A DNA stretch of 64,000 bases from Candidatus Sungiibacteriota bacterium (GCA_016201505.1 JACQCQ010000013.1:5285-69284); one strand, 5' to 3'; counted from the first letter of the stretch, positions 15,230 to 33,053 are shown. The notes: a model not told the origin generated them from the letters alone. Translations and numbers: made by a program.

Positions 15230-15336
15230 ACTGTTTCCACATTATACACGAAGCCTCGCATCCCAACCAAAAAAGAAACCGCCCCGTGCCATTTGTAGCA
15301 CACGGGGCGGAGAAACCCTTCTGGCTGCGGGTATCA

Positions 15337-16086: not shown

Positions 16087-16231
16087 GTGCCACCCCTCCC
16101 TCCAGCGAACTTCGTTTTGAAAAAGAACTGCGACTTCTATTTAGTATAGCACTGAAATGAAGATTCTTTTTTAAGACACTGTTTTTGATATTTTTCTCGT
16201 GTCTTTCTGTATAATTGATGAAGTCAAACTA

Positions 16232-16269
16232 CCTATAACGTACTACAGTACGTTATAGGTAGTACGGAC
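16232..16269. repeat. Palindrome cctataacgtact-ac-agtacgttatagg followed by tagtacggac; boundary motif shared with 63873-63900
   Basis: 13-bp inverted arms seen directly. The 16-nt string tataggtagtacggac recurs at 63885-63900. It sits at the junction between GC-rich and AT-rich DNA. Confidence 0.5.
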
Positions 16270-16350
16270 CTATGTATTACGGAATTTCTTTCCTCGTGTT
16301 TAGTTGCATCACATATAATAAGAAGGGGCGCCGCAGACTCGAGCGGCGCC

Positions 16351-16728
16351 CTAGGGGGACGCTCTCCCCTTCTTGATGAGGTGGAGGACGACGCCCTGGA
16401 TATCTTGCTTGTGCCGCAAGGTCTCGTAGACCAGCACTGTGCCCAAGAAAAGCGCCCCAACCTTGATGAGCCTCTTCAAGGTAATGGGCTGGTGATCATC
16501 GCGCTCCGGTTCGTAGACCTCCATACCGTCGAGCAGACCGGCTCGCTGCAACTCGGTGATACTGTCCCCGAACCTTCCCATCTCTGTGCGACTGTTGAGA
16601 ATGTTATTTTTATCTCGGCAGAGATCACAGTAGAGCGAAAAACCGCCATGCTTGCAGGCCGCATAGGCTTCAAATGCCCTGCGCGCTTTGCGGAGACGAT
16701 CCGGATCATGAGCTTCCACGGTCTTCAC
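16351..16728 (-). CDS. Hypothetical protein (C-terminal TM) in the GC-rich island
   Basis: ORF only. Confidence 0.3.
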   Translation of the reverse strand: MKTVEAHDPDRLRKARRAFEAYAACKHGGFSLYCDLCRDKNNILNSRTEMGRFGDSITELQRAGLLDGMEVYEPERDDHQPITLKRLIKVGALFLGTVLVYETLRHKQDIQGVVLHLIKKGRASP

Positions 16729-17035
16729 CTCCTTAAAGAACGTATCTGATTGGTGCTTTATTGTATACCTCTAATAAAAATTAGCCAGTTGTTGAAGCTT
16801 TACGTGGCGGAGGAGGTTACTGTGTCCGTCCAAAGCCTTGGCGAAGGAGGAAAACCTATGCCGAGGAAGCGCTTTGGCTGGAGGACGCCATTAGAAGTTT
16901 TTGCCGACAGTGTTGCACTTACTTGTTGAACCTAATCCTTTGAGAGACAAAACGAGTATATTTACATACCAGATTCAATAACTTGCTCAAACGCATAAAT
17001 TTTTATCTCACCTCGCTACTCACTATTGTTTGGAA

Positions 17036-17066
17036 ACAAAAAGCTCCCATCATGGGAGCTTTTTTG
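17036..17066. terminator. Bidirectional rho-independent terminator aaaaagctcccatcatgggagcttttttg
   Basis: Perfect hairpin with A-run and T-run flanks, 20 bp downstream of the minus-strand gene ending at 17088. Confidence 0.7.
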
Positions 17067-17087
17067 CGGAAGTAGCAAGCAAGAGGC

Positions 17088-17630
17088 TTAGGGATTTAAG
17101 CCGACCTCTATCGGAAGCCCGGTTATAGTATCTACCATTTCTGTTACTCCACCGTCATTGCTCAAGAATACCTTACCGCTATCTTCGGCCAGGGTTACAT
17201 CATCAACTGGCGTGAAGTCAGCTTCACATAAGTTATTTGTTTCTGCAGACAAGTCGAATGCAACATTCCAAAGATATCCTGTATTTTTACCAGGTTTATT
17301 TAACCTTGGATTATAAGCATCAACCTCTTTGTTGGTGTTTACGACAGCTTTCTTATCAACAGTGATAGTTTTTGTACCTTTTTTAGTTATAATGTCCTTT
17401 TGACAGGTTTGCTCGTATTTGGCTTGAGCGTGGAGAAATACCCTCGCTCCATTTTTGTAGGTACCTTTGCCAACAAACCCATTAGCGAATCCATTGCTAT
17501 CTGGTGCGGCTAAGCTGGAAGCATAAACTAAGAGGTCATTTTGAACTGCAGCAAAGACCGCAGTTGTCGTGAGAGCCAAAACCATAGCTGTGATTCCTAA
17601 ACTAGCAGGTATTTTTTGTAATTTTTTCAT
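17088..17630 (-). CDS. Hypothetical secreted protein
   Basis: Signal peptide MKKLQKIPASLGITAMVLALTTTAVFA. Confidence 0.6.
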   Translation of the reverse strand: MKKLQKIPASLGITAMVLALTTTAVFAAVQNDLLVYASSLAAPDSNGFANGFVGKGTYKNGARVFLHAQAKYEQTCQKDIITKKGTKTITVDKKAVVNTNKEVDAYNPRLNKPGKNTGYLWNVAFDLSAETNNLCEADFTPVDDVTLAEDSGKVFLSNDGGVTEMVDTITGLPIEVGLNP

Positions 17631-17840
17631 GATATTTTTCCCAATATTAATGTTTTAGCAAGCTCGACCTTATTATTGGAAGACTATCCAAACTCACTTA
17701 AATTATTAGTAAGAAATATAGCATAAACAATTATTAAGTCAATTTTTTTACCGCACTTTTTCTACCACGCTCCGCCACTCACTATTATTTTCGGAAGGTT
17801 CTAATCCCGCAATGGGTCACGAAAATAACCCCTATAAAAT

Positions 17841-18155
17841 CAGGCTATTTTAAGTGCTCCATACCCTGAACGAAATCCGAACGCATTTTCGGGAAACCCC
17901 CGACGAATGAAGCCGCCCCGCCGCCGCTCGCTACCACTCGCCGCACCACAGAAAAATACTCTTTGCTCTTTTCGTTTTGCGCGCGCCCGATTTTTTCTTC
18001 TCTTAATGAAAAGAGTATTTTTCTGTGGTGCATTGCTTTGACAAGCAAGGCGGCGGGGCTGGCCTCTATTTTTTGCAAGAACACGGCGGAATTCCCCCCA
18101 CACCCCCCTTCCGCCGTGTTCTTGCGGGGACGGACGGAATTTTTGGCGGCGGCTA
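17841..18155. repeat. GC-rich repeat R1 copy A (inverted partner at 21998..22203), carrying a nested 107-bp insertion
   Basis: Sequence from 17841 onward equals the reverse complement of 22203 downward, except for an insert at 17926-18032. Contains long internal hairpins (gcaagaacacggcggaa...ttccgccgtgttcttgc and ccgccgccttgc-tttgacaa-gcaaggcggcgg). Confidence 0.75.
17946..18028. mobile_element. MITE-like 83-bp element with 19-bp terminal inverted repeats (ccacagaaaaatactcttt ... aaagagtatttttctgtgg), nested in R1 copy A only
   Basis: Perfect terminal inverted repeats seen directly. Absent from R1 copy B. Confidence 0.45.
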
Positions 18156-18163
18156 ATCAAGTA

Positions 18164-19222
18164 TTAAGATTGCTTAAAATACTCATTCAACTGATTGACA
18201 AATTCCTTTGTGTCTAAAAAATAATTTGGGTATGCTTTCCTTAACTCTTTTGCTGTGTCTGCAGATACAAGCACTATATCCCTATCTTCTTTATTTTTTA
18301 ACATCCTCTCTTCAAGCTTTGAGTATTCTGAGTTTGCAAATTCTTCTTGAGATTTTTTAAAAGCTGAAATTTTCAATTCTCTTGTTGTGAGGTCTAGGTT
18401 TAGAAGATAGAAATCAAATTTATCTTTAGCCTCTTTCTCAAAGTTCTCGATTATTTTATGAATTCTCGCCCACTCGTTCATTTTTTTAACAACTTTTAAT
18501 TGTCTCGCCAATGCCTGGACTTGTTCTCGTAACTCGGCTTTATCGGTGGGTGTATTCGGCACCGAGGGCGTGTTTTCCATATTCGCAAATGCAGAGCTAA
18601 CCAATCTGAAGAAATCCATCCACTCTTTTTGACCTTCGTTTGATTTAATTGCTTGTCTAGTAAAATGGTCAACTGTTTCAACGGCTGTAGCCCAATAGTG
18701 CTGTAAATATGTTCTTATTTGTATTTCAATTAGTAGTCCATCATATGCATTACTTTTATCGCTGTAATATTTATAAACAAAATGGAAACTTCTATATCCG
18801 TCAGGTTTTGGATTCGTTATATAATCTTTCTTATTTGATAATTTATGTTTCAGGCCCCTGCTTTTTTCGTAAAGTCCAACAAGTTCATTAACTTTCTGAA
18901 GGTTTGGCAAAACCGATCTGCAGCCGCCAACATCTTGCATTCTTGACATCTTCATTTTGCTAGTCTGATCACGCTTGAGCTTCTTAATTATTGATGAGAC
19001 GCGCTTGAGCCGCCGCGTAACTATTGCCGATGAATCAACTCGTTTTGAAATTCGTTTTAGTCTCACGGCAAACGTATGCAGTGGAAAACTATGAGATGAA
19101 CGCCAATTAGTCAAGATATCGAGAGCATTGCTTATTTCTTCGGACGAGCTACTCGAAGAAATAAGCACATCTCCCGCTTTATTTACCTGATTCTTCGAAA
19201 AATTTAATTTGGTCCATCCCAT
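18164..19222 (-). CDS. RelA/SpoT-domain nucleotide pyrophosphokinase (toxSAS-like) with a ~150-aa C-terminal helical extension; candidate CapRel-type fused toxin-antitoxin
   Basis: RelA/SpoT synthetase motifs: ISNALDILTNWRSSHSFPL, RLKRISKRVDSSAIVTRRLKR, MQDVGGCRSVL (DxxGxR), PKPDGYRSFHFV, EIQIRTYLQHYWATAVE. 352 aa, versus ~210 aa for housekeeping SAS. Confidence 0.7.
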   Translation of the reverse strand: MGWTKLNFSKNQVNKAGDVLISSSSSSEEISNALDILTNWRSSHSFPLHTFAVRLKRISKRVDSSAIVTRRLKRVSSIIKKLKRDQTSKMKMSRMQDVGGCRSVLPNLQKVNELVGLYEKSRGLKHKLSNKKDYITNPKPDGYRSFHFVYKYYSDKSNAYDGLLIEIQIRTYLQHYWATAVETVDHFTRQAIKSNEGQKEWMDFFRLVSSAFANMENTPSVPNTPTDKAELREQVQALARQLKVVKKMNEWARIHKIIENFEKEAKDKFDFYLLNLDLTTRELKISAFKKSQEEFANSEYSKLEERMLKNKEDRDIVLVSADTAKELRKAYPNYFLDTKEFVNQLNEYFKQS

Positions 19223-19261
19223 AACATTACTTTATTTTCCAGTTTTAATTCGGTTAGCTTT

Positions 19262-20431
19262 TTACCGATTTCCTTTTGCTCGATTGTGGGTCTTGCACAA
19301 CATCTCACAATTTTTCGTTGAAGTAGCACCACCCTTACTCCACGCTGATACATGATCTGCTTCCATTTCGCTAAAACTCCAAACCTTGCTCTTATTGGCG
19401 TCATGTCCTATCGCGCAATGTGAACAATTTGATTTCTCTTTAGTTTCCGCCTCACTTGTTTGTTTCGCGTAGACAGATCTCTTGGTCGCCTCATCAAAAA
19501 TTCGGACATCTAGCAATTTCGTATCAACTGAGCCGCCGAAAATATATTCAAAAATACCTTTTCGGTTTTTTACATACGGATCGCTATAAAGTTTTTGCAC
19601 CGCCTTTGAAATTTTAGCTGGGTCGTAAGACTTCTTGTGATACTCCTCATACAAGCGCCCCCACTCTAGGCCGCACATCTCGCTCTCTACATCTGTAAAT
19701 ACACTCGAAACCCAATCAATCACGCTATTGAAATATGTTTTTAGCTCTTTAATGTTTGTATCTTTGCGGTGACGACTCATGTAATCGTCAATATTCCCCT
19801 TACTTACCCAATCTAGCGCTCTCTCAAAAAATGCCTGTCGAGCCGCACTACCCTTTATGTATACGCTCCATTTTTGGATATTGGCATTTTGACTATTACT
19901 AAACTCCTCCTTGCCGAGCGTAACGAATGGCCCAGAATAGATAGCATTTAACAACTCTTGTGGAACGAGAGGTACTCCAGCGATATTTATAGTTTTGAAC
20001 CACTCCTTTATTTCACTTTCTGCGCCCTCGCATTCGTAAATAAGCAAAGGAGTTTTCAAAATTCTACTCTGCTTGTCTTTTGCCATGCCGCTAAAATATT
20101 GTTCCATTCCATTTTCGTCTTTTATGGCAAACTTGTCAGTTACAAACCGTCCGAGACTAGTGATGCGTTGTTGGCCGTCTAAAACTTCTAGATTGTCGGC
20201 AGAAACTTTATTGAAATAAATTAATCCTATCGGGTATTCTTTGAGGACTGATTCAATAACAGCTATTTCTCTTTTACCGCCATCAGACGCATAAATATAA
20301 TTTCGCTGGTACTCCGGCTGAATGGTGAGTTTGCCAGACAAACCAAATAAACCCTTGCCCTCGAGTTGGTTATAGATAAATCCATCGCAGATCTCTTTGA
20401 CAGTTATATTAGTTTTTAAAATTGTCTTCAT
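19262..20431 (-). CDS. DUF262 (ParB/GmrS-like NTPase) fused to a C-terminal HNH/His-Me finger nuclease; GmrSD-family type IV-like restriction endonuclease
   Basis: [15 protein letters not shown] motif. C-terminal CSHCAIGH...[11 protein letters not shown]...[18 protein letters not shown] motif. Confidence 0.75.
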
Positions 20432-20432
20432 A

Positions 20433-21647
20433 CTATTTTTTCTTATGTCTTATAAAAATTCTTTGGTAAGCAGACTGGACGATTCGACCTTCTTTGTTAA
20501 TAAAGTAGTTCTTTTTTTCATCATTTCCAACTAAATTAGCATTTTCATTTGTCTTTCCTCCAGATGATCCTGTTTTCATGCCATCCTGCCTTACCTCCCA
20601 ATAATCATAATAATTTTTTGTGTCAGGAACCTCATCATGGCACCCTCTTTGGGTCGCTCCTAAAATTTCAAACTGGTCCGGATTATATTTATTCAAAAAA
20701 CTAATCGGCACGCCCATCACACCTTTATAGTCGCTGGGAATATTTTTCACTAATGACACTTCTATTACATCATAATTGTCATACTTTTCGAATGGTTTTT
20801 TTGTTACAAACTTTATAACATCAGATTTAGTCATTAGCGGTAGTGACTGATGTCTGCGCCCATGGTCAAGATTCGTAAACCATAAGCAACCTTTCACAAA
20901 TAAAAATTTCTTTCCTTCCTCTATTTTTGAATTTGCGACATTTTCTCTTATCGGGTAATCGTCTGGTACTTGGAACCACTTATTTCGCCCGTCCATTGTG
21001 ACTCCTAGCCACAACTTATTATTCTTGATGAGTGGAAAAATTTCTTTATAAGTAATCGCATTTAAATTACCGATAATGATAAAATTTCTATTGTAATCAA
21101 AAAGCTGCTTAATATATGGTCGAAACAAGCTGAATGGTGGATTTGTTACTACAATGTCTGATTGTTTAAGAAGATTTATACATTCATCACCACGAAAGTC
21201 GCCATCGCCGTCTAGAGGCGTCCATTCGTTGTGTTTGTTTGCCTTTAACTGCTTGGCAACATCTTTCAAATTAAACTCGCCGTCTCCGTCTATATCATGC
21301 ACTTCGTTGATAATAAATTTGTTGGCAGTCACCTTTGGACGGCCTTTTGATTTTGTGAGCGTTTTGTCATCACCAAATAATCCTAGTTGTGTGTTGGCTA
21401 CGGGCGAGGGCTTGTAGCTGGTGGTAATAAGCTGTTTCAATCCGAGCTTGTTGAAATTGAGTACAAAATAGCGAAAGAAATTGCTCTCAAACGGATCGTC
21501 GCAGTTGCAATATACTACCTTACCGCGGAATGTATTAGCATTATATTCTAAATACGCTTCAATTTCTTTTTGAATATCGTCGTACTGAGTATAAAACTCA
21601 TCACTCTTTGCTTTTTTTGCTTTGTTAAAACTACTGCTGTTTGCCAT
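20433..21647 (-). CDS. N6-adenine (or N4-cytosine) DNA methyltransferase, EcoRI-methylase-like family
   Basis: N-terminal [14 protein letters not shown] and catalytic VVTNPPFS (NPPF) motif. Confidence 0.7.
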
Positions 21648-21649
21648 AA

Positions 21650-21865
21650 CTATTTCTGTATTAAATCATCAACGCCAACATTCAATGCCTTTGCAATTTT
21701 AGACATCGTTTCAATGGTCGGATTGATGTTTGCTCCCGATTCAATCTTAATGATTGTATTGTAGGTAACATCAGCAAGTTTCGAGAGCTTATCTTGCGAA
21801 ATACCGAGTTTGTTTCGGTATTTTTTGATATTATCAGCAATTTTTGAGTTGTTGCTTGCGCTCAT
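21650..21865 (-). CDS. XRE/Cro-type HTH regulator (RM controller C-protein-like)
   Basis: 71 aa with KKYRNKLGISQDKLSKLADVTYNTIIKIESG. First gene of the minus-strand cassette. Confidence 0.7.
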   Translation of the reverse strand: MSASNNSKIADNIKKYRNKLGISQDKLSKLADVTYNTIIKIESGANINPTIETMSKIAKALNVGVDDLIQK

Positions 21866-21997
21866 AGTAATATAATACTATAATCAAAGTAATGGCGATT
21901 AAAATTGATTATTATATTACTATGGTATCAAAAAATAACGAATTAGTAAATCTCAAAGGGAGCTCCTTAGCCTTTTCCGCGCACGGGTGGTGGGGCA

Positions 21998-22203
21998 AGG
22001 AAAAGAAATTAGCCGCCGCCAAAAATTCCGTCCGTCCCCGCAAGAACACGGCGGAAGGGGGGTGTGGGGGGAATTCCGCCGTGTTCTTGCAAAAAATAGA
22101 GGCCAGCCCCGCCGCCTTGCTTTGACAAGCAAGGCGGCGGGGCGGCTTCATTCGTCGGGGGTTTCCCGAAAATGCGTTCGGATTTCGTTCAGGGTATGGA
22201 GCC
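21998..22203. repeat. GC-rich repeat R1 copy B (inverted relative to copy A)
   Basis: Reverse complement matches 17841-17925 plus 18033-18155. Confidence 0.75.
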
Positions 22204-22337
22204 AAATTGGATGATACGAGTTCACCGCCTCGTCCCTCGACTTTGCTCGGGACTCGGCGGGCAAATCGGCAAGAATTTTCCACGACTTTTTGGGTTCAAA
22301 ACAAATCGCTTGCGGGCGCAAAACGTGGTTCGCCGCG
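22198..22337. repeat. Inverted repeat IR2, left copy (~140 bp, ~96% identical to the reverse complement of 23804-23940)
   Basis: Alignment done by eye. The ORF-track peptides share MIRVHRLVPRLCSGLGGQIGKNFPRLFGFK on opposite strands. Confidence 0.75.
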
Positions 22338-22451
22338 CGAAGCGCGGAGTAAATGGAAATTTACAGCCAATTCTTTTTCTTCCGCCTTCGGCGGAAAGCA
22401 AAGCGATAATTTTTAGCCCAAAAGCGATAGTTCAATAAATTCACTACAAGT

Positions 22452-24011
22452 ATGAAATACTTTTTATACATCAGAAAATCAACGGACGAGGACGATAGAC
22501 AAGTTTTGTCGCTGGAAGCACAGGAGACGGAACTGAAGGAATTTGCCTTGCGGGAAAATCTTTTTATCGCCGCGACTTTCCGCGAATCGCAAACCGCCAA
22601 AGAGCCAGGCAGACCGATTTTCAACGACATGCTCAAACGAATGGAACGCGGCGAAGCCGAGGGGATTTTAGCGTGGCACCCCGATAGATTGGCGAGAAAC
22701 AGCATAGACGGCGGACGGATAATTTTCTTGATTGATACTGGAAAAATCAAAGCGCTAAAATCCCCGACATTCTGGTTTGAGCCGACCCCGCAAGGCAAAT
22801 TCATGTTGAATATCGCTTTTGGGCAGTCCAAATACTTTGTGGATAATCTTTCAGAGAATACCAAACGAGGGTTGCGTCAAAAATTGCGCCGAGGCGAATT
22901 GCCAGGCTACGCGCCACTTGGCTATTTGAATGACTTGCTAAAGCACACGATGTATAAAGACCCCGAAAGATTTCGCCTCGTTCGCAAGCTTTTTGAATTA
23001 TACGCAACCGGAAATTATTCTCTGAAAGATTTGCGGAAGTTGATAACTTCCGCCGGATTGTTGAGCCGCAAAGGAAATATGCTTTCCGTCTCCAATATCC
23101 AAAGTATACTCTCTACCTCATTTTATTACGGCGTATTCAAATACAACGGCGAACTTTATGACGGAAAGCATGAGCCAATGATTGCAAAGAAACTTTTTGA
23201 AGCGTGCCAAAAAGTGATGGCGGATCGTTCGCGCCCGAAAAAGCCGAGCCAAAAAGAATATCCGTTTAGAAATTTGCTCAAATGCGGCGAATGCGGATGC
23301 GCCATCACTTCTGAAACGCAAAAGGGGCATAACTATTATCGCTGTACGAAAAAGAAAGACAAACAATGTTCGCAAAAATATATCCGGGAGGAAGTTTTGG
23401 CACGCCAGATTTTGGACGAGATTCAAAAAGTTTCTTTGCCTCCCGCTTGGGCGGAATGGATGCTTACGGAATTGAACAAGGAAGAAGCGGAAGCCGCCCA
23501 AGCGGGTGTCGTTTTCGCTCAAAATCTCAAGGACAAAATAAAAGAGCTTGAAGGAAAGCTCGACCTGCTTTTAGACGCTCATTTGGACGGCACGATTTCG
23601 CGCGAGGAATACACCGCCAAGAAAGAAAAATTCATCACCGAAAAGGCCGAGCTTTCCGAAAAATTGAAGGATTTTGAGCGAAGCGGCAATCATTGGCTCG
23701 AACCGGCCCGGCAATTCATTTTAGCGGCTCTACAAGCCAAAAATATCGCTTTGCAAGAAAATCCCGTCGCGGGACGGGATTTTCTCAAAAGAATTGGCTC
23801 GAACCACGTTTTGCGCTCGCAAGCGATATGCTTTGAACCCAAAAAGTCGTGGAAAATTCTTGCCGATTTGCCCGCCGAGTCCCGAGCAAAGTCGAGGGAC
23901 GAGGCGGTGAACTCGTATCATCCAATTTGGCTCCGCGCCTTGACCGACGTTAGAACCGCCTTGATGAGCCTAACGGGCTACTCGCCGTTTACGATTGTGA
24001 GAGGATGGTAA
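22452..24011 (+). CDS. Large serine recombinase (resolvase N-terminal domain, recombinase domain, zinc ribbon, coiled coil)
   Basis: Catalytic YIRKSTDEDDRQ with the Ser nucleophile, CGECGCAITSE...YYRCTKKK zinc ribbon, 519 aa. Confidence 0.85.
   Translation: MKYFLYIRKSTDEDDRQVLSLEAQETELKEFALRENLFIAATFRESQTAKEPGRPIFNDMLKRMERGEAEGILAWHPDRLARNSIDGGRIIFLIDTGKIKALKSPTFWFEPTPQGKFMLNIAFGQSKYFVDNLSENTKRGLRQKLRRGELPGYAPLGYLNDLLKHTMYKDPERFRLVRKLFELYATGNYSLKDLRKLITSAGLLSRKGNMLSVSNIQSILSTSFYYGVFKYNGELYDGKHEPMIAKKLFEACQKVMADRSRPKKPSQKEYPFRNLLKCGECGCAITSETQKGHNYYRCTKKKDKQCSQKYIREEVLARQILDEIQKVSLPPAWAEWMLTELNKEEAEAAQAGVVFAQNLKDKIKELEGKLDLLLDAHLDGTISREEYTAKKEKFITEKAELSEKLKDFERSGNHWLEPARQFILAALQAKNIALQENPVAGRDFLKRIGSNHVLRSQAICFEPKKSWKILADLPAESRAKSRDEAVNSYHPIWLRALTDVRTALMSLTGYSPFTIVRGW
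23804..23940. repeat. Inverted repeat IR2, right copy, lying inside the 3' coding end of recombinase 1
   Basis: Reverse complement of 22198-22337. Confidence 0.75.
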
Positions 24012-24021
24012 ACAGACAATT

Positions 24022-24306: not shown

Positions 24307-24314
24307 CGATGTGT

Positions 24315-25178: not shown

Positions 25179-25261
25179 TATAGCTAATTCAATAGCATTC
25201 TATCAGTATTCCCCAAGCTGATCGAAAACATCTTCCAGATTTTGACCGCAGAGCTTAGGTT

Positions 25262-26674
25262 TTACGCCAAAATCATTCTCTCAACTCGCTTTTGCGCGTT
25301 TGCTAAAACTTCGGTCGCCTGAATGCGCAAGGTTCGCATTTTTGAGTAAGACGACCGAACACCGTCTACTATTTTTTCCTGAACTGGCATGGGCGGTAAC
25401 GGGAATTTGAATGATTTGAATTCTTCAGAGTTTATATTTGGCTGACCAGCTGGTCTCTGAATGAGATTTTTCCACAATTCATAATATCGCGTTTGAGTGA
25501 GACAAAAAACGTAATCTGGGATTGCCTTCTGCGAATTTATTTTGAAACGGATCATATAACCAGCAAAAATAGCTTTACCCACCTCGTCCTTATAGATATA
25601 CGTTTTTCCTGCGGTTGCTCCGCTTCTGGCAAACAGTAAATCGTCTTGCTGCAGAATATATCTATCTTCAATTTTCTCTGCTGTTTTCCAGCTATCCGCT
25701 CGTAATTCTCCGTCATCTTCAATATCGGTAATTCTTATATAGCGCATGTCGCGCAATGGATTGCCATCAACAGCTCTCTCGTTTGCACCATATTGTGGTG
25801 GCTCGGATAAAACTTCTTCAAGCGTGGACAAAGAGTATTTCGACTCTAAGTGTGAATAAATGGAATAATCGCGCAAGTAGATCGGGTCGAGACGATTTGT
25901 AACCTCATCACTCCAGACCTCAAATACTCGCCGTACCCCCCCCTCTGGGATTTCTATACCAAGCTCGCCAAGAACGAAGCCGTCAATCGAGGCGATGATT
26001 TTTTGGATTTCTGTTTCTTTCTTTCGTTTTTCTGCATATGCCACTCGTATTGTTTCTACTACTTCCTTTTGAATTTTGATAGACGGAATAGGAAGTTTGA
26101 CTGATCTGATTTCGTCAAGATTGATGTTTGCTTGGACAGATGGCCGAGAAAGGCGATTGGTTTGGATTTTTCCGATTTTTGAATTCAAAACTGTTGCAAT
26201 ATAGTTGTTATCATACCCGTCTTTCAAAACAATTCGGGCAAGCGCCTGATTTATATTTGCTTCGCCTATACCATCTTGAACTATTGCGACTAACCCTATC
26301 GTACCGGCCATCGAGAGTAATAAATCACCCTCTTTGAGTTGTGTTCTTTTAAGAATTCCACTATGAATCTCCGGTTTGATGTAAAGCACATCCGATAAAT
26401 CAATATGCCCATCTTCGAGATTGGTAACACGAATAAAAGGGATGCCACCTTCTTCTTTGGAGATGTAAGCATCGCCACCCGCTAAAGGCGTTGCACCACT
26501 TCCGATATAATTCGCAATTTCTCCGAGTGTTTTTACATCTTTTCTGTTCGAGATTTTTTGTTCGAACTCTGTGAAATATGGCAAATAAAAACGTGGGTCA
26601 AGTCGTTTTTCAACCTTATCGCTCCAAATCGAAAATACCTGTGTCGCTAAATTATTATTTTCTGAATTTTTCAT
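25262..26674 (-). CDS. hsdS: Type I restriction-modification specificity subunit HsdS (two target-recognition domains)
   Basis: Two repeated TRD halves with conserved linker helices (LGEIANYIGSGATP..., LEEVLSEPPQYGAN...). ORF runs to 26749; start chosen at the internal Met closest to the hsdM stop. Confidence 0.8.
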   Translation of the reverse strand: MKNSENNNLATQVFSIWSDKVEKRLDPRFYLPYFTEFEQKISNRKDVKTLGEIANYIGSGATPLAGGDAYISKEEGGIPFIRVTNLEDGHIDLSDVLYIKPEIHSGILKRTQLKEGDLLLSMAGTIGLVAIVQDGIGEANINQALARIVLKDGYDNNYIATVLNSKIGKIQTNRLSRPSVQANINLDEIRSVKLPIPSIKIQKEVVETIRVAYAEKRKKETEIQKIIASIDGFVLGELGIEIPEGGVRRVFEVWSDEVTNRLDPIYLRDYSIYSHLESKYSLSTLEEVLSEPPQYGANERAVDGNPLRDMRYIRITDIEDDGELRADSWKTAEKIEDRYILQQDDLLFARSGATAGKTYIYKDEVGKAIFAGYMIRFKINSQKAIPDYVFCLTQTRYYELWKNLIQRPAGQPNINSEEFKSFKFPLPPMPVQEKIVDGVRSSYSKMRTLRIQATEVLANAQKRVERMILA

Positions 26675-28427
26675 ATTCTTCCAAAATTTTATACAGGTCA
26701 TTTTGTGTTTCGGTTCGTCCTGTCGCGTCATAGCCGATATGCTCAGCAATTGCCATAAAAATTTTATAACGCTTTAGTTTCTCCTTCATACCATTGCGCC
26801 TCACGAAAACAAGCGACGACTTCACGCCCGCGCCAAAGTGAGTAAAAGCAAATTGTGGAAGCGAAACAACGGCTAGAATCTGACATCGCTCCATAAGAAA
26901 ATCGCGGACATATTGGAGTGATGAGTTGGTCAAAATCCCATCCGGCAAAACAATCGCCATTTGGCCAGTTTCCGGCTTCAAAAAATCTACACACCTCTCG
27001 ATGAACAATATCTCGGTTTTTTGGTTGTCGCGGATTTTTTTGCCATTTTGAGCAAGCACAAATTTTTCGAGATAAGGGTGTTCGCTCCGCTTAACCGTAG
27101 CACCGAATGGCGGATTGGTAACGATGAAGTCAAAACGATTTCGTGCAAAGCCAGGATTTTTTGCCTTCATCTTTTCAATATCATTGAGCGCGTCATGGCC
27201 GATGACGTTCGTGTGGCCATCGTCGTGAATAATCATATTCATTTTGGCTACACGCGCGATGGAGTCATTTATTTCAATACCGAAAAGATTGTTTTGCGCA
27301 AAATCATGCCAATACCGCCACTGCTCTTTTTCCTCATTGGGGTAATACTCCGCCGCCTGATGTCGGACTTCGTCGAGCGTATGCAAAAGAAAGCCGCCAG
27401 AACCGCACGCAGGGTCAAGCACAAGGTCGTCATTCTTTATGCTCATCATTTTGACGGCAAAACTAACGATATTGCGCGGGGTGAAAAATTGACCGCTTTT
27501 GCCCTTGAAAAAATCCTCCATAAAATGCTCAAAGGCGACACCTTTGGTATCAAGGTCGGTTTTATCAAGAGAAATGCCCTGTAAGTGCTCGACGACGGTA
27601 TACAATTCTTCCGGCTCGATTTTCAAATCTTCCTTAAAGACTTCGGGATCAATCTTTTTCGCTTCAAGATAAATGGCGTTGATACGCTTATAGACGCTCT
27701 CCGCACTCTCGTGTGTTTTGATCTGAAAATCATAAGGGTCGCCCGTGCGGCGTCCCTTTTTTTCATCGCGAATTTTTACAAAAATAATTTTGGCGAATTC
27801 ATCAAACGCGGTGGTTGGCGCACGCTTGCCGCCCGCCCAAAGTGTATCGTGGCACTTTTGGAATGCCCGTTTTAAGTCCTCTTGGTCAATCGGCTTCAAA
27901 TCCCAATGCTGATCGCCTTTTTTGTAGCGAAATTCCTCAACTTTGCCGTAGGAAATCGGAATATCAGTGATAGTTGCCTTTTCTGGCTCTTTGTCGTTCC
28001 AAACGCCGGTTTCCATCGCGCGACGAGTATTGCCCGCTACACAATTCGAGAATGGAGCACGAAGAACGCGTGCATTGGCAATGGCTTGTTTTGTTGCTTG
28101 TTCAAATTCCGCATCGGAAATGCCATCTTTTTTACACTCAACGACGATGTAGGGCTTACGTTGAGCATTATCTTCATAAATAACAATGTCCGCGTAGCGT
28201 TCTGGTGTGCGGTCTGGCATTTCCACTTCAAGTCCGATACGCGCAGCAGGATAGTTGTATTTTTCGATAAGGTCAAAATAGTATTCAGCACGAACTTTTT
28301 CTTCGGGATCGCTTAGGTTTTCCTTGTGTCCAGACGGCAAGTATTCAATCTTCGCCCCACCGTTATGCAAACGGAAGTACCCCTTTCGTTCTCCATCTTT
28401 TAGAATTTTTTCAAATGCGGACTGCAT
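26655..28427 (-). CDS. hsdM: Type I restriction-modification N6-adenine methyltransferase HsdM
   Basis: LVLDPACGSGGFL (motif I), TNPPFG (motif IV), HsdM N-terminal domain. Confidence 0.85.
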   Translation of the reverse strand: MQSAFEKILKDGERKGYFRLHNGGAKIEYLPSGHKENLSDPEEKVRAEYYFDLIEKYNYPAARIGLEVEMPDRTPERYADIVIYEDNAQRKPYIVVECKKDGISDAEFEQATKQAIANARVLRAPFSNCVAGNTRRAMETGVWNDKEPEKATITDIPISYGKVEEFRYKKGDQHWDLKPIDQEDLKRAFQKCHDTLWAGGKRAPTTAFDEFAKIIFVKIRDEKKGRRTGDPYDFQIKTHESAESVYKRINAIYLEAKKIDPEVFKEDLKIEPEELYTVVEHLQGISLDKTDLDTKGVAFEHFMEDFFKGKSGQFFTPRNIVSFAVKMMSIKNDDLVLDPACGSGGFLLHTLDEVRHQAAEYYPNEEKEQWRYWHDFAQNNLFGIEINDSIARVAKMNMIIHDDGHTNVIGHDALNDIEKMKAKNPGFARNRFDFIVTNPPFGATVKRSEHPYLEKFVLAQNGKKIRDNQKTEILFIERCVDFLKPETGQMAIVLPDGILTNSSLQYVRDFLMERCQILAVVSLPQFAFTHFGAGVKSSLVFVRRNGMKEKLKRYKIFMAIAEHIGYDATGRTETQNDLYKILEEYEKFRK

Positions 28428-28428
28428 A

Positions 28429-28653
28429 TTATTTCTTTTTTAAGAGTTTCAGAATGTCATCTTTTTGATAGCGTCTATCCTTCCTAATTCCAATACGAAT
28501 AGCTTTAAGAATCCCTTTTGTATCCCATTGGCGAAGCGTATTCGGATGACATTTCAGAACGGCGCAAGCCTCTTTAAGCGTTAGAAGTTCGGGGATACCC
28601 CTCTTCTCCTGTTTAGTCCTAGGCATTGATTCTAACTTAACATTTGCTAACAT
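28429..28653 (-). CDS. Excisionase-family/MerR-like HTH DNA-binding protein (Xis-like)
   Basis: IPELLTLKEACAVLKCHPNTLRQWDTKGILKAIRIG. Confidence 0.5.
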   Translation of the reverse strand: MLANVKLESMPRTKQEKRGIPELLTLKEACAVLKCHPNTLRQWDTKGILKAIRIGIRKDRRYQKDDILKLLKKK

Positions 28654-28682
28654 AGGCCGTAAATAGCATCATACCTTAGAAA

Positions 28683-29396
28683 ATGGCCAACGAAGTAGCC
28701 CCTATAGAGAAACTTAGCCAAATAAACTTCCTTAGCGTCTGCGATGTCGCTATGGATATTTTAGAACAGCTCCAGCTTTCTACTGAAGATAAAGTAACTA
28801 TTAAGCTGATACGAAATCTAATAAGATTCTCTATCCTGCTGCCAGCCAAAGCGCCGAACCTTATGGACGAATATGGCGACAACCGGATGAGGGCAGTAAT
28901 TTATCTGGAAGAAATTGGTGTTATTGCACACTATAAAGTCCTTAGTGACTATAACCACTACGAAGCAGAAATCTTAATAGACTTAAATCGAGGATCATTC
29001 AATTCATTCTATGACAAGTTGGGAGAAGTATACGAAAAAAGAGTTGTGGAGCCAGCCAAGAAGAACGAAAGCCAAGGCGATACCTCGCGAATTAAATCCT
29101 CTGATTTCTCATACTCCAAAGATGATGAAGTATGCTTTCGTGGACTTAAGGCAAAAATACCAGGCAATACCAACCAGTCAGGAATATGTAAATTCCTGTT
29201 TGGGCAAAACCTCGGCAGTTGGTTTGATTGGGATACCGTTTATCAAGAGATTAAGGGTGCCGAACCTATGAAAAATGAGAGCAAGGTCATCGCAGATGCA
29301 GTCGAAGCGATAAACCAAAAGACTGAACAAACAATCGGTCTCAAAATTATTGAATTTAAGGATAAAAAGTTGAGATTGAACCCACGATTATCTTGA
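28683..29396 (+). CDS. Hypothetical protein
   Basis: 237-aa ORF with no recognisable motif. Confidence 0.45.
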   Translation: MANEVAPIEKLSQINFLSVCDVAMDILEQLQLSTEDKVTIKLIRNLIRFSILLPAKAPNLMDEYGDNRMRAVIYLEEIGVIAHYKVLSDYNHYEAEILIDLNRGSFNSFYDKLGEVYEKRVVEPAKKNESQGDTSRIKSSDFSYSKDDEVCFRGLKAKIPGNTNQSGICKFLFGQNLGSWFDWDTVYQEIKGAEPMKNESKVIADAVEAINQKTEQTIGLKIIEFKDKKLRLNPRLS

Positions 29397-29459
29397 GTCG
29401 CAAATGACTCACCCGTGAGTCATTTAGCTAAGGAATAGGCTGAAAAAGGCCTATTTTTT

Positions 29460-29642
29460 ATGCTGCCAAAAGTCGCAATCGAAGAATTTAAGAAGCTCTA
29501 TCACGCTAGATTCAAGGTTGAATTAAGCGACGAAGAAGCATCATACCGAGCCAATAACTTGGTGAATTTGTATTCCGCAGTCTATGGCCAGCCCGTCCCT
29601 GGCCGTATCCAGCCGCCCACAAAGGATTCCAAGAAATTTTAG
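29460..29642 (+). CDS. Small hypothetical protein
   Basis: ORF only; its 3' end runs into an 18-bp tandem repeat. Confidence 0.3.
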   Translation: MLPKVAIEEFKKLYHARFKVELSDEEASYRANNLVNLYSAVYGQPVPGRIQPPTKDSKKF

Positions 29643-29662
29643 GATTCCAAGAAATTTTAGGA
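29624..29662 (+). repeat. Tandem direct repeat ggattccaagaaatttta, 2 copies plus a partial third
   Basis: Seen directly. Confidence 0.6.
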
Positions 29663-29678
29663 CAACAAGTTTTAGCAT

Positions 29679-30908
29679 ATGGACACTGTTCAAATACGAA
29701 TCCGAGGACTTAACAAATTCCATGTAGCGACTTGGGCGTTGTTTAACCAGGATTTTCATCCTCGAAAGTTTGCCGAACTCTCGCGCAACGAATTGACCCA
29801 AGCGAGGAACCCAAGAGTCCCGTACTTGCGGCATTTTGTCTTGCACGGAGGAGATGGCGAGCTTTTCCGCCCGAAAGTGGAGATATTTGAATCGGCAAAC
29901 GTAGAAAAAGGCCTAACCGAATATGACCTCGTAATCACGTTCTCTATCCCCCAATTGCTTAATGAGAACAGCCTCCAAGAAATTGCTCCCAGCGATAGTT
30001 ACCGAGTTTTCGATACTCTCCGCGAACGGCTAAGCAACCTTGGAATCTCGACATTAACAGAACATATCAAGAATGGGACTGTATCGGTAGCCCATTTCTG
30101 CAAGAATATCATCCTGCCGCCGGAAATCCGATTCAGGAGTGTCTCGGCGGAACTCTCAAAAACCGACATGGGAAAAGCATACGATACGTCCGAAGAAATC
30201 ATGCAAAGAGGGACTAATAACAACGAAATCGTGCGGATACGTTGCGGCACACGGGAATGGATTTGTTATAACAAGATCGAGGACTTAAAAAACCATAAGG
30301 GCAAAGGCGCGGGGAGAAGGCGCACGCAACTTGAAAAAGACCTTTTTGCGGTTTACGCCCTTGATGGCCTAGAAGTCTTCCGATACGAGTACCGGCTCAA
30401 TAAAGCCCAAACCATAAAAAGCGAAATCAATAGCATCCTCGGAAGGCCATACCCGACGCCAATAGTGTTTAACGATTTATTTACAGAAGGACTTTGGAAA
30501 ACAGTTTTGCTTAACTCTTGGGAAAAGCTAATTATGCGTCCAGAAAACCAGCTTGCCCTCCTTGGGGGCGATGACAAGCTGGCACTATTGCATCACATAC
30601 TCCACAAGGCAGAATCGAAAGAAAGAAGTGCGCATAGCCAAAACCAAGCACTCGTAAGCTACTCACTTGCTGTAGCCATCAAAGACCACGGAGTTAAGAC
30701 GATAAGGCAAGAGCTGGCTAGAGGGTGGTCAAATAAAGCCGATGACAGGCTTACGGAGAAGCTAGAAGCAGCGGCGAGCGCAATGGAGGATTTATCTTTT
30801 TCGGATGGGTTATCTTTTATAGACCGCGAGCTTAGGCGATTTAACAGCACTACCTTGGATTCGTTTCCCAAGAAAATGGCGCTTGATAAGTCCAAAAGAA
30901 CCCTGTAA
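29679..30908 (+). CDS. Hypothetical 409-aa protein of the island; possibly an element replication/maintenance protein (unsupported guess)
   Basis: ORF only; no confident motif. Confidence 0.45.
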   Translation: MDTVQIRIRGLNKFHVATWALFNQDFHPRKFAELSRNELTQARNPRVPYLRHFVLHGGDGELFRPKVEIFESANVEKGLTEYDLVITFSIPQLLNENSLQEIAPSDSYRVFDTLRERLSNLGISTLTEHIKNGTVSVAHFCKNIILPPEIRFRSVSAELSKTDMGKAYDTSEEIMQRGTNNNEIVRIRCGTREWICYNKIEDLKNHKGKGAGRRRTQLEKDLFAVYALDGLEVFRYEYRLNKAQTIKSEINSILGRPYPTPIVFNDLFTEGLWKTVLLNSWEKLIMRPENQLALLGGDDKLALLHHILHKAESKERSAHSQNQALVSYSLAVAIKDHGVKTIRQELARGWSNKADDRLTEKLEAAASAMEDLSFSDGLSFIDRELRRFNSTTLDSFPKKMALDKSKRTL

Positions 30909-31049
30909 AATGATGATGTTGACCCGTCCAAAAGCTATCCGCCACAAAGGTATTTTTATTGGTTTTAGTGTCCCAAAAGGGGCGGTTTCAGCCGGTAGAG
31001 CTACTTCCTTTGTGGAGCAAGCGGACTGGGTCAACCTGAACCGTCCCTT

Positions 31050-32684
31050 TTGTGTTTTATGAAAGAAAATCTTAATAAAATTTCATATTTTATTTATCCC
31101 AGAAAATCTTCCGAGCAGGAAGATAGGCAGGTTGTTTCCATTGAGTCTCAAACTAGAGAACTTCAAGAAGTTGTTGTGAGAGAATCTTTGGCTGTCAAAG
31201 ACACGCTCCCCGAATCTCATTCAGCGAAATCTCCAGGCCGCCCGATTTTTAACAAAATGGTTCAAAGAATCCAGGAGGGAGAGGCAAACGGCCTCTTAGT
31301 CTGGAACGCAAGCCGTATCGCCCGTAATGCGGTTGATACAGGCCAAATTATCCATCTTCTTGATACGGGAAAGCTACTTGAGGTAAGAACCCCTAGCCAG
31401 ATATTCAGAAACACCCCAAATGATAAATTCTTACTCAATCTCTTTTGTAGCCAAGCGAAACTTGAAAATGACAATAAGGGCGTGGATGTAAAACGGGGGC
31501 TTAAAACAAAAGCGCAAATGGGTATGTATCCCTGTCACGCGACGGCAGGATATATGAACGATAAGACTGCCGAGAAGGGCTTTAAGCAATTGCATCCAGA
31601 CCCCGAACGCTTTGAGCTAGTCCGAAAGATTTTTGACCTAATCCTTACCGGAGCGTATTCGCCGATGCACGCCTTAAGAATCGCAAACGAGGATTGGAAA
31701 TTCAAAATGCCGAGCGGCAAACCTATGGGGCGCAGTACCCTGTATAACATTTTGACCCGCCCGATTTATTACGGGATGTACGAATACCCTATCGGTAGTG
31801 GGAATTGGCATCGGGGCATCCACAAGCCAATGATTACGGAAGATGAATATGACAGGATTCAAATGCTCTTAGGCAGGCAGGGTAAGCCGCGCCCTAAGAG
31901 CCACATCTTTGATTTTGCCGGAATGATGCGATGCGGAGAATGCAATGCGATGATTACGGTTGAAGAAAAATACAAACACCAAAAGAACGGAAAAATCCAT
32001 CACTATATTTATTACCATTGCACCAAGCGAAAAAATCCTAACTGCTCTCAAGGCTCAATTGAAGAAGCGGAGCTAAATAGGCAGATAAATGCGGCCATTG
32101 ATAAACTCGTTATCCCGCCCGAATTTCACGATTTTGGCATGAGGTGGTTCAGGGCGCAGAACGAGAATGAGTCATCGAGCAGAAATGCTATCCTCGCTAC
32201 CCGTCAGGAAGCCTATAAGCTCTGTATCAAGAAAATTGACGGGTATATTGATATGCGAGCGGCCAAGGAAATTACAGCAGAGCAGTATGCCCAAAGGATA
32301 GCCCCCTTGGAACGCGAGAAAGCTCAACACGAGGAGTTTTTTGCCGATATGGGTCAAAGGATAGACCAATGGATTCAAACAGCAGACGAGATGTTCACTT
32401 TTTTGGACGATGCAAAGGAAAAGTTCAAAACCGGAACCCTGGAGACAAAAAGGCAGATACTTTCGACTCTTGGTTCGAACCTCGTGATAAAAGACAAAAT
32501 ACTCACACTGGACGTGCAAAATACGCTCTTGCCAATGGAAGTCGTCTCGGAAGAGGCTAAAAAGATTTATGCACGGTTCGAACCTGTCAAAAGTGCCATA
32601 GATAAAAGGAAACTGGAGCTTGCTTACTCCAAGAGTCCACGAATGCTCCGGCGGCAGGACTCGAACCTGCGACCTGGGGATTAA
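31050..32684 (+). CDS. Large serine recombinase, paralog of 22452..24011; its 3' end overlaps tRNA-Asn in antisense
   Basis: YFIYPRKSSEQEDRQVVSIESQ catalytic region, CGECNAMITVEEK...YYHCTKRKNPNC zinc ribbon, 544 aa. Confidence 0.85.
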   Translation: MCFMKENLNKISYFIYPRKSSEQEDRQVVSIESQTRELQEVVVRESLAVKDTLPESHSAKSPGRPIFNKMVQRIQEGEANGLLVWNASRIARNAVDTGQIIHLLDTGKLLEVRTPSQIFRNTPNDKFLLNLFCSQAKLENDNKGVDVKRGLKTKAQMGMYPCHATAGYMNDKTAEKGFKQLHPDPERFELVRKIFDLILTGAYSPMHALRIANEDWKFKMPSGKPMGRSTLYNILTRPIYYGMYEYPIGSGNWHRGIHKPMITEDEYDRIQMLLGRQGKPRPKSHIFDFAGMMRCGECNAMITVEEKYKHQKNGKIHHYIYYHCTKRKNPNCSQGSIEEAELNRQINAAIDKLVIPPEFHDFGMRWFRAQNENESSSRNAILATRQEAYKLCIKKIDGYIDMRAAKEITAEQYAQRIAPLEREKAQHEEFFADMGQRIDQWIQTADEMFTFLDDAKEKFKTGTLETKRQILSTLGSNLVIKDKILTLDVQNTLLPMEVVSEEAKKIYARFEPVKSAIDKRKLELAYSKSPRMLRRQDSNLRPGD

Positions 32685-32717
32685 CAGTCCCTCGCTCTAC
32701 CACTGAGCTACGCCGGA
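32646..32717 (-). tRNA. tRNA-Asn (anticodon GTT)
   Basis: Manual fold: acceptor TCCGGCG/CGCCGGA, D arm GCTCAGTGGTAGAGC, anticodon loop CTGTTAA, T arm GCAGGTTCGAGTCCTGC, discriminator G. Confidence 0.8.
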
Positions 32718-32959
32718 ATATATTTCTTTATAAATTCTCGGCCTCGGAAGCTTTTCAATTGCTTTTCACGCCTTAAAGCCTCCCGTCGAGTAGTTAGATG
32801 TTCAGAGTATATAAGATCCCAATGGCCGTCAAATCTTGAAGTAAAGCTATTTTTAAAAGTTTTTTCCTCATGCAAAGTAAGCCTCTTTTCTAAGTTTTCT
32901 GTTTGACCAACATAAATCTTATCAAACTTTTTATTGTAGAGTGCGTAAACGAAGTACAT
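32708..32959 (-). CDS. GIY-YIG nuclease-superfamily small protein
   Basis: MYFVYALYNKKFDKIYVGQTENLEKRLTLHEE shows the GIY...YIG, R and E motifs. Confidence 0.75.
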   Translation of the reverse strand: MYFVYALYNKKFDKIYVGQTENLEKRLTLHEEKTFKNSFTSRFDGHWDLIYSEHLTTRREALRREKQLKSFRGREFIKKYIPA

Positions 32960-33003
32960 AAGCCCGCTCTACCTCCGCCGGCTGGCGGAGAGCTACGCCG
33001 GAA
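32960..33003. repeat. Partial duplicate of the tRNA-Asn 5' segment (gagctacgccggaata) preceded by the hairpin ctccgccggctggcggag
   Basis: A 16-nt direct repeat lies at 32705-32720 and 32987-33002; the two copies flank the GIY-YIG gene. Confidence 0.5.
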
Positions 33004-33053
33004 TACCAAAAAAGTATAGCCTCAAAGCAAGCTCAAATCAAATCTGGATTTAT

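Follow-up and report, generated by a model that had tools for sequence, protein, structure and literature searches.

The stretch of DNA analysed here (hereafter, the window) comprises 64,000 nucleotides (nt) from a Candidatus Sungiibacteriota bacterium (GCA_016201505.1, JACQCQ010000013.1:5285-69284). The source is a Patescibacteria genome whose RpoD is 80–82% identical to those of its best relatives among species-representative genomes. All coordinates are positions in the whole window, and L-numbers denote comparison loci from relatives or metagenomes. The region of interest adjoins the 3' end of a tRNA-Asn gene situated just after rpoD; it encodes two large serine recombinases (LSRs), LSR1 and LSR2, and appears to be a composite of two elements, E1 and E2. 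The principal features are listed here.

17856-23934: element E1, encoding LSR1, a restriction endonuclease and methyltransferase of type II, and a candidate defence protein of the RelA/SpoT kind
23930-32649: element E2, encoding LSR2, a methylase with its specificity subunit (both type I-like), and a Rep-like protein
22452-24011, plus strand: LSR1, large serine recombinase of 519 amino acids (catalytic motif IRKST; Pfam Resolvase, Recombinase and Zn_ribbon_recom)
31050-32684, plus strand: LSR2, large serine recombinase of 544 amino acids (motif PRKSS; Pfam Resolvase, Recombinase and Zn_ribbon_recom)
32645-32717, minus strand: tRNA-Asn(GTT), identified with ARAGORN and Rfam (72 bits), the proposed integration target

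The first-pass annotation of this DNA had described two paralogous large serine recombinases in the same orientation, and the domain searches bear this out. Both proteins have three domains: a Pfam Resolvase match (E-value 3.1e-19 for LSR1 and 3e-20 for LSR2) with the serine motif near the N-terminus, PF07508 (Recombinase) and PF13408 (zinc ribbon). The coiled-coil insert was judged by eye only. The two share 33% identity, with the start of LSR1 located 8.6 kb upstream of that of LSR2, and the best full-length match to the recombinases among solved enzymes is SPbeta SprA (E about 1e-6). The reported end of LSR2 inside the antisense tRNA-Asn is likewise confirmed. The open reading frame (ORF) runs antisense through the 3' half of the tRNA gene, its last 13 codons are antisense tRNA, and its stop codon is the TAA provided by the invariant TTAA of the anticodon loop. 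The 3' end of the tRNA, GGAGC, corresponds to GCTCC at 32645-32649, hereafter the core. In the public record LSR2 is represented only by a C-terminal protein of 302 amino acids ('recombinase zinc beta ribbon domain-containing protein'); the ORF in the window is intact.

The same arrangement is encountered in many other genomes. A tRNA-Asn gene lies just after rpoD in 22 of the 80 rpoD loci of other species; about 11 of those 22 extend for more than 2 kb further without a recombinase, and five of these rpoD loci carry a recombinase relative downstream of the tRNA. The first-pass annotation had suggested a comparison with relatives lacking the island, and these are the roughly 11 loci that keep rpoD and tRNA-Asn; none of the relatives has the island gene order, the pattern that the first-pass annotation had named as refuting. 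The recombinase ORF ends inside the 3' half of the tRNA in L045, L021, L051 and L070, and about 140 nt away from it in L016. A protein search with LSR2 returned more than 3000 relatives at E ≤ 1e-20, the few with a source name coming from Patescibacteria groups. In every context fetched, the gene ends in tRNA-Asn or tRNA-Glu. LSR2-type relatives, at 43–62% identity, adjoin tRNA-Asn in L045, L021 and L171-173 and tRNA-Glu in L082-090 and L174. The metagenome scan with LSR1 yielded 80 loci at 51–94% identity; nearly all LSR1-type loci that reach past the gene have an antisense tRNA at the stop codon, for Asn, Gln or Ser according to clade, and relatives 87–94% identical to LSR1 adjoin tRNA-Asn. 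Metagenomic loci of the recombinase family number more than 500, and among viral contigs LSR2 had a single distant match. Judged by these comparisons, the geometry of recombinase and tRNA is meaningful.

The window contains three pairs of inverted repeats, at 17856-17925 and 22133-22202 (100% identity), at 18030-18157 and 22008-22135 (96% identity), and at 22176-22332 and 23800-23956 (92% identity). When the repeat segments were aligned with each other, with the junction between LSR2 and the tRNA, and with locus L051, every switch in homology fell on the 5-bp GCTCC, the reverse complement of the tRNA 3' end GGAGC. Breakpoints at the core are also seen in L091, L092 and some twenty junctions of the Asn clade. 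GCTCC is the only sequence common to all four putative attachment (att) sites in the window, which are given below with their flanking arms (x, y and R).

17856-17860 (core), plus-strand reading: site 1, composed of left flank, core and x arm; distal E1 junction (17856-18157), attR-type
22008-22332, minus strand: site 2, composed of x' arm (22008-22197), GGAGC core (22198-22202) and y' arm (22203-22332); internal inverted attP-like site
23800-23956, plus strand: site 3, the E1/E2 junction, composed of y arm (23800-23929, the LSR1 3' end), core (23930-23934) and the P-type R arm that starts E2
32645 (core), plus-strand reading: site 4, composed of LSR2 3' end, core and tRNA body; attL-type (P' arm plus tRNA)

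The x arm of site 1 pairs with the inverted partner at 22008-22202, and homology to arm B begins exactly at GCTCC. This left x arm is interrupted by a 104-nt insertion (17926-18029) that contains a 22-bp perfect hairpin and is absent from the inverted partner. At site 2 the y' arm is the inverted LSR1 3' end, matched by tblastn to LSR1 residues 449-502 on the minus strand with 85% identity. At site 3, the core is the point where similarity ceases both to arm B and to the loci of more than 20 related recombinases.

The arms differ from the tRNA in the placement of one motif. A T-loop-like heptamer, YYMGAAC, lies 15 nt from the core in the x and R arms, and the T-loop motif of the tRNA itself, CTCGAAC, lies 10 nt from the core (B-type spacing). 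The pattern GCTCC-N15-YYMGAAC has three matches in the window versus 0.08 expected. Of 32 LSR1-type loci with a tRNA, all 32 have the heptamer of the tRNA arm exactly 5 bp nearer the repeat end than its counterpart in the element arm; five loci in which a non-tRNA arm follows the recombinase, the window included, show an offset of 0. For the Listeria integrase, the zinc-ribbon motif is 5 bp nearer the centre in attB than in attP, a difference that underlies directionality (Rutherford et al. 2013, PMC3783163). The agreement with this rule argues that the tRNA arm has the character of a B half-site and that both x and R have that of P half-sites, and the T-loop is likely to be the zinc-ribbon motif.

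The bases adjoining the cores differ between junctions. Junctions derived from E1 have the sequence GGAGCCA, in which the CCA is encoded, as it is in other LSR1-type loci. GGAGCA is found at the distal junction, at the junction with the tRNA and in the unoccupied tRNA-Asn of the closest relative, L002. No recombinase follows the tRNA-Asn of L002. A group I intron (Rfam RF00028, 63.5 bits) interrupts the anticodon loop of that gene (5886-6190), which ARAGORN missed for this reason.

A partial copy of the tRNA-Asn 3' end had been anticipated in the left part of the island as its attR, and none was found. The shared sequence is limited to the 5-bp core, which is what serine integrases, unlike tyrosine integrases, would be expected to leave. 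A search of the window with a 29-mer allowing up to 3 mismatches and with blastn-short returned no copy of the tRNA-Asn 3' end, only 11-13-mers at chance level, of which those at 9347 and 30112 lie inside ORFs. A low-threshold Rfam scan of 15000-33200 for tRNA-like remnants gave the real tRNA only. At the far end there is no direct repeat of the tRNA 3' segment of at least 15 nt, and any direct repeat of the tRNA in the window is ≤5 bp. A different situation is seen in L070, where a distant recombinase (23% identical to LSR2) on tRNA-Asn belongs to a complete 7.4-kb island. Both ends of the island carry the same 19 nt of the tRNA-Asn 3' end as a perfect direct repeat (9269-9287 and 16638-16656); the shared core is therefore much longer in some branches of the family. 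A palindromic attP made by joining the terminal repeats was also considered for the window and was rejected: the displaced GGAGCCA that it predicts after the inner core is missing.

We propose that positions 17856-32649 represent a 14.8-kb composite at the 3' end of tRNA-Asn, in which two elements with unrelated cargo, each inserted by its own LSR at the 3' end of the tRNA-Asn that follows rpoD, form a tandem array; a probability of about three in four seems appropriate for this reading. Each recombinase would bind the acceptor and T-arm of the tRNA as the B half-site and the T-arm mimic of its own element as the P half-site. Strand exchange would take place within GGAGC, so that no long repeat would be made and the tRNA would be left intact. 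E1, with LSR1, the restriction-modification system and PDC-S33, would have integrated first into tRNA-Asn. E2 would then have recombined with the tRNA-proximal E1 junction (tRNA arm plus core), inserting between E1 and the tRNA and leaving the hybrid y1-core-R at 23930 and y2-core-tRNA at 32645. Since arrivals would enter at this position, each newcomer would push older units away from the tRNA. The core-adjacent bases fit a history in which E1 came first, and this would be the simplest history. The scheme predicts an empty attB of CTATTTTAAGT GCTCC GGCGGCAGGACTCGAACC, an E2 circle junction of GAGTCCACGAAT GCTCC GCGCCTTGACCGACGTTAGAACC, and, for the E1 circle and restored site, CATCCAATTTG GCTCC ATACCCTGAACG (direct orientation) and CATCCAATTTG GCTCC GGCGGCAGG.

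Serial accretion of two elements, each with its own LSR, had been suggested in the first-pass annotation and gains from the comparative evidence: the geometry is repeated in dozens of loci, and tandem recombinase pairs recur in L114, L162/163, L164 and L169. The order in L169 is that of the window, with an LSR1-type gene, an R arm, leftward HsdS/HsdM genes, rightward backbone genes and a second recombinase; the HsdS/HsdM pair at this position is homologous to that of E2. The backbone order p60, p409, recombinase is kept in L171-174; in L082-090 and L045, too, a homologue of p60 lies ahead of the recombinase. R-class arms (GCTCC GCG..GACGACGTTMGAACC) start the units of direct arrays; L145 has three of them, L051 has two and L076 has one, and such an arm also follows the LSR1-type gene in L115 and L169. 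The arms of the arrays are located at 1956, 11476 and 18931 in L145, at 14993 and 15610 in L051, and at 12355 in L076. The units between R-class arms lie in direct orientation downstream of tRNA-Asn and have no recombinase. The arrays suggest that long series of cassettes were built and then decayed at tRNA-Asn.

Several points weigh against the proposed composite. Searching with the R motif did not reveal the distal ends of the LSR2-type elements in L171, L045 and L021, and the assignment of R to LSR2, a weak point, is drawn from two tandem cases and the spacing rule. An empty-site allele of this species was not found: exact-protein look-ups for RpoD, the desaturase of the left flank, the ORF of 180 amino acids, the GIY-YIG protein and P0032 returned nothing, or short Logan contigs colinear with the window, from the groundwater runs SRR12113409 and SRR12113410. 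Synteny with the left flank is absent from the 80 rpoD loci of relatives, and the original attB is thus reconstructed, not observed. The repeats of E1 are only 92–96% identical, and one has the 104-nt insertion; E1 may no longer be mobile. The segment 16087-17855 has an island-like GC content without a site, and the accessory region may accordingly be longer. Finally, the source is a metagenome-assembled genome, in which repeats of 70–157 nt can mislead assemblers, though R and both flanks are unique.

The internal inverted site of E1 is a regular feature of LSR1-type loci. An inverted copy of the recombinase 3' end, 68–178 nt in length, lies 27–170 nt upstream of the start codon in 55 of the 60 loci that could be evaluated. 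These copies end exactly at the tRNA junction and are usually 97–100% identical within an element, though the layout is conserved across recombinases that are only about 50% identical. Beyond the inverted copy lies the x arm, conserved across the Asn, Gln and Ser clades, and the other end of the cargo is bounded by a further x arm in inverted orientation in L099, L108, L136, L105, L051 and L145. The x arm contains repeated AAATCCGAAC-type motifs. The LSR1-type order reads core-x, cargo, x'-core-y', spacer, recombinase, y-core, tRNA. As a result of the internal inverted site, the recombinase gene of E1 is bracketed by y repeats and its cargo by x repeats, an arrangement that the first reading of the sequence had missed. 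Excision at the two outer sites would yield a circle with a pair of attP sites in inverted orientation. That the layout is kept while the copies remain near-identical suggests that these elements pass through a life-cycle step not recognised so far.

Homologues of the Cro/C1-type helix-turn-helix (HTH) protein of E1 are encoded in 31 LSR1-type loci. In 29 of these the gene stands beside the inner site, 380–870 nt upstream of the recombinase and divergent from it; in the remaining two (L098 and L105) it stands at the far end in the opposite orientation. Comparisons by blastn show homologous cargo with its ends inverted between L098 and L094, L099 and L102, and between L105 and L115, L118 and L121. 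Taken together, the position of the HTH gene and the blastn inversions indicate that inversion of the cargo between the x arms occurs in related elements. The flipped cargo, in 2 of 31 related elements, comes in each case from samples other than that of this genome, and a flipped recombinase segment was never seen in about 50 loci. The spacer is only 27–41 nt in several loci, and the recombinase transcript therefore probably begins within or beyond the inverted copy. Such a transcript could possibly pair with its own 3' end, which would allow a regulatory reading. In L092 the recombinase 3' end is joined to the x arm; the join was not relied on to prove excision or flipping, since it could be an assembly product of a 127-nt repeat.

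It is conceivable, though we regard it as rather doubtful, that the LSR1-type elements represent a distinct and undescribed class of integrative element in Patescibacteria. Such a class would combine a recombinase that reads the T-loop, a circle with two inverted attP sites, inversion driven by the recombinase for switching or amplification, and integron-like defence arrays formed together with LSR2-type units. If this is true, the recombinase would read the universal T-loop of tRNAs, and small changes near the core could retarget it to Asn, Gln or Ser. The circle would furthermore be divided much as the yeast 2-micron plasmid is, with the recombinase on one arc and the cargo on the other. Within the library searched, a full-text literature search returned no paper on recombinase genes bracketed by inverted att copies.

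The inverted layout also lends itself to an explanation in which E1 is not, or is no longer, mobile and forms an invertible defence module within a single island; LSR1 would act mainly as an invertase of the cargo or of its own gene, and LSR2 would be the only integrase. In favour of this are the bracketing of cargo and LSR1 alike by inverted repeats, the presence of the layout in 55 of 60 related loci with repeats mostly 97–100% identical, and the inverted homologous cargo of L098 and L105. Nevertheless, LSR1-type genes 87–94% identical to LSR1 sit directly on tRNA-Asn with a distal core site closing the element (L099, L136 and L051), and LSR1-type elements therefore do integrate. In about 50 loci the recombinase gene was never seen flipped, no tRNA lying on its upstream side; the cargo inversion is equally explicable by RecA, and the roles of invertase and integrase are compatible in any case. 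We consider this explanation unlikely.

Less probable still is that 17856-32649 is a single element using its two serine recombinases jointly, in the manner of SCCmec CcrA/CcrB or Dehalococcoides DsiA/DsiB. The common orientation of LSR1 and LSR2, their membership of one broad family at 33% identity and the recurrence of same-orientation pairs in other loci are in its favour. Each recombinase, however, ends on its own core site with its own type of arm, and complete elements with one recombinase exist for both the LSR1 type (L051, L099 and L136) and the LSR2 type (L171, L082 and L174). Moreover, two full-length three-domain enzymes 7 kb apart are unlike the adjacent small-plus-large pair of Dehalococcoides (PMC3146451). 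That the recombinases are unrelated resolvases or invertases whose closeness to the tRNA is incidental, the region being an ancestral island or having arrived by another route, would suit the tRNA direct repeat of ≤5 bp in the window, but it is very hard to reconcile with dozens of independent loci in which the recombinase stop codon falls in the tRNA 3' half, breakpoints exactly at the tRNA 3' end, the 5-bp spacing in 32 of 32 loci, and relatives that have the same tRNA and no island.

For the tandem composite that we favour, the outer limits differ from those of the first-pass annotation, which had placed them at a palindrome at 16232 and at a duplicated tRNA segment ending at 33003. Both features are real, and neither marks an end of the island. 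The palindrome (16228-16263) has perfect arms of 17 nt, and an 80% copy that shares TATAGGTAGTACGGAC occurs 47.6 kb away at 63860-63900; both copies lie 60–140 nt upstream of minus-strand genes. It is probably an operator or promoter element. As an att site it was rejected on account of its second copy, its promoter-like position and its lack of a core or T-loop motif, and the left end is instead placed at the GCTCC core at 17856-17860. Between the left flank and this core, the 1.77 kb of 16087-17855 have a GC content of 0.433, which is island-like, and contain two orphan ORFs of 125 and 180 amino acids (the latter at 17088-17630) with no family match and no counterpart in the loci of relatives. 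No core-plus-arm att site and no recombinase remnant was found in this segment, which may be an old decayed unit or simply variable chromosome and is left outside the composite.

On the right, the duplicated segment (32965-33002) corresponds to the 5' part of the tRNA, comprising positions 1-13, a GC hairpin in place of the D-loop and then positions 17-25 (GGTAGAGCG). It lies upstream of a GIY-YIG ORF (32708-32959) immediately 5' of tRNA-Asn, and the ORF stops at a TAG that falls within the acceptor stem. Each of the six other loci checked (L027, L038, L003, L116, L099 and L149; 7 of 7 with the window) has this arrangement of three parts, once at tRNA-Ser. The comparison identifies it as a small unit of its own, located 5' of the tRNA, and it looks like a tRNA-targeting homing-type unit.

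Further repeats occur beyond the right flank. Directly 3' of an intact tRNA-Ser(GGA) (37791-37878), a fragment of about 55 nt (37729-37783) resembles the 3' part of tRNA-Ser, with acceptor, T arm and variable arm; it may be a scar of another integration. A near-perfect palindrome of 33 nt (TTTATTCTCAAGTTCTTAAGAACTTGAGAATAA) is found three times around a small ORF (37387-37419, 38137-38169 and 38440-38472), and a 110-nt unit in two tandem copies with 95% identity (38579-38798) adjoins these palindromes.

The cargo of the two elements is unrelated, and the GC content of E1 (0.416) and E2 (0.435) compares with 0.497 and 0.488 in the flanks. The remaining genes of the elements and flanks are as follows.

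15337-16086: left flank, fatty-acid desaturase; the flank also encodes a DJ-1/PfpI protein
18164-19222, minus strand: E1 cargo, RelA/SpoT-domain protein (Pfam RelA_SpoT, 1.5e-20; PADLOC PDC-S33, 3.8e-124), candidate defence gene
19262-20431, minus strand: E1 cargo, type II restriction endonuclease (GmrSD_N plus HNH; REase_II, 6.9e-80)
20433-21647, minus strand: E1 cargo, EcoRI-like adenine methyltransferase (Pfam EcoRI_methylase, 1.8e-127; PADLOC MTase_II)
21650-21865, minus strand, divergent from LSR1: E1 backbone, Cro/C1-type HTH protein (Pfam HTH_3, 2.2e-16)
24022-25178, minus strand: E2 cargo, DUF4325 (STAS-like) protein and a partner of 287 amino acids (phrog_3364)
25262-26749, minus strand: E2 cargo, type I-like specificity subunit
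26655-28427, minus strand: E2 cargo, N6-adenine methyltransferase (type I-like)
28429-28653, minus strand: E2, HTH_17/MerR-like, excisionase-like protein (Pfam HTH_17, 2.5e-10; PHROG excisionase families)
28683-30908, plus strand: E2 backbone, with p237 (28683-29396), p60 (29460-29642) and p409 (29679-30908)
33054-34271, minus strand: right flank, rpoD
34424-36226, minus strand: right flank, dnaG

The defence genes and the excisionase-like HTH protein named in the first-pass annotation are thus found within the composite; its secreted protein, the ORF at 17088-17630, falls outside the end at 17856. The HTH_17 protein is a candidate directionality factor or regulator. For the type I-like methylase and specificity subunit of E2, no R subunit was seen. 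No island ORF contains a Phage_integrase domain by Pfam, and LSR1 and LSR2 are the only resolvase-domain proteins, a second, small serine recombinase being absent. The ORF described as rep-like corresponds to p409, which has no Pfam match itself; 4 of the 32 members of its family match Phage_CRI (G2P N-terminal), with a best E-value of 8.7e-6. Its AlphaFold (AF2) model, with a pLDDT of 88, matches three unnamed viral proteins, and comparison with the tyrosine recombinase at the same position in L082 revealed no similarity. On this evidence p409 is at best a candidate for a rolling-circle Rep of the G2P/Phage_CRI-like kind.

Serine integrases are prized in genome engineering for their short sites and their independence from host factors. 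Here a very large natural family appears to take the acceptor and T-arm of a tRNA as attB and a shifted T-arm mimic as attP, which provides a test of the published 5-bp directionality rule that can be read from sequence. The occurrence of relatives on tRNA-Asn, -Gln, -Ser and -Glu suggests how the choice of target could be reprogrammed. Patescibacteria have tiny genomes and few recognised mobile elements, and the arrays show how they gain and stack restriction-modification and other defence genes.

In comparison to known systems, the yeast 2-micron plasmid with FLP/FRT and the invertible segments of bacteria resemble the LSR1-type layout by analogy only: two inverted sites split the element, one arc holds the recombinase, and one arc, here the LSR1-type cargo, is found in both orientations in nature. 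The LSR1-type element differs from the 2-micron plasmid in its class of enzyme and in being chromosomal, and its inversion could be the work of the recombinase or of homologous recombination. Classical tRNA islands and tycheposons are similar in targeting the tRNA 3' end, in keeping the tRNA intact, in carrying cargo for defence or adaptation and in forming tandem arrays. However, they leave partial tRNA copies as boundaries, and the window has neither a tyrosine recombinase nor a partial 3' copy; tyrosine recombinases predominate among them, with 910 of 937 in the tycheposon preprint.

Known serine-recombinase systems share the enzyme class and differ in other respects. Phage serine integrases mostly target protein-coding genes or intergenic DNA. 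Those of Listeria A118/LI, phiC31, Bxb1 and SPbeta (SprA) are similar in having three domains, a short common core and the 5-bp rule for attB and attP (PMC3783163). In the elements described here, by contrast, the B arm would be the acceptor and T-arm of a tRNA, the recombinase ORF continues through the site and into the tRNA, very little sequence identity is shared with solved enzymes, and the elements are small cargo islands without phage structural genes.

SCCmec elements are serine-recombinase (CcrAB) cassettes that insert at the 3' end of rlmH (orfX) and form composite tandem arrays. They have direct repeats of 15–18 bp, two cooperating recombinases and a Firmicute host. The similarity to E1 and E2 is thus one of logic, in the use of the 3' end of a conserved gene and in the tandem arrays; target, repeats, pairing of the recombinases and host are different. 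A comparison with SCCmec is also drawn in PMC3146451.

The closest described system is that of the ssrA islands of Dehalococcoides (McMurdie et al. 2011, PMC3146451), in which a serine recombinase of about 540 amino acids (DsiB) lies beside the 3' end of a structured RNA gene together with accessory cargo. There too, accretion has produced tandem stacks of several different islands, with units that lack an integrase among them. The ssrA islands differ in that the target is transfer-messenger RNA rather than tRNA and in that the direct repeats measure 20 bp, as opposed to a 5-bp core with a T-arm mimic shifted by 5 bp. They also include a second, small serine recombinase (DsiA) in the module, which the window lacks, and an internal inverted att site, present in E1, is not mentioned in PMC3146451. 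No paper on serine recombinases at tRNA genes in Patescibacteria was found in the full-text search, an absence that refers to the library searched and not to the literature. Set beside these systems, the integration mechanism proposed here is well supported by sequence comparison, and the novelty lies in serine-recombinase elements that target the 3' ends of tRNA genes, one type of which carries an internal inverted att site.

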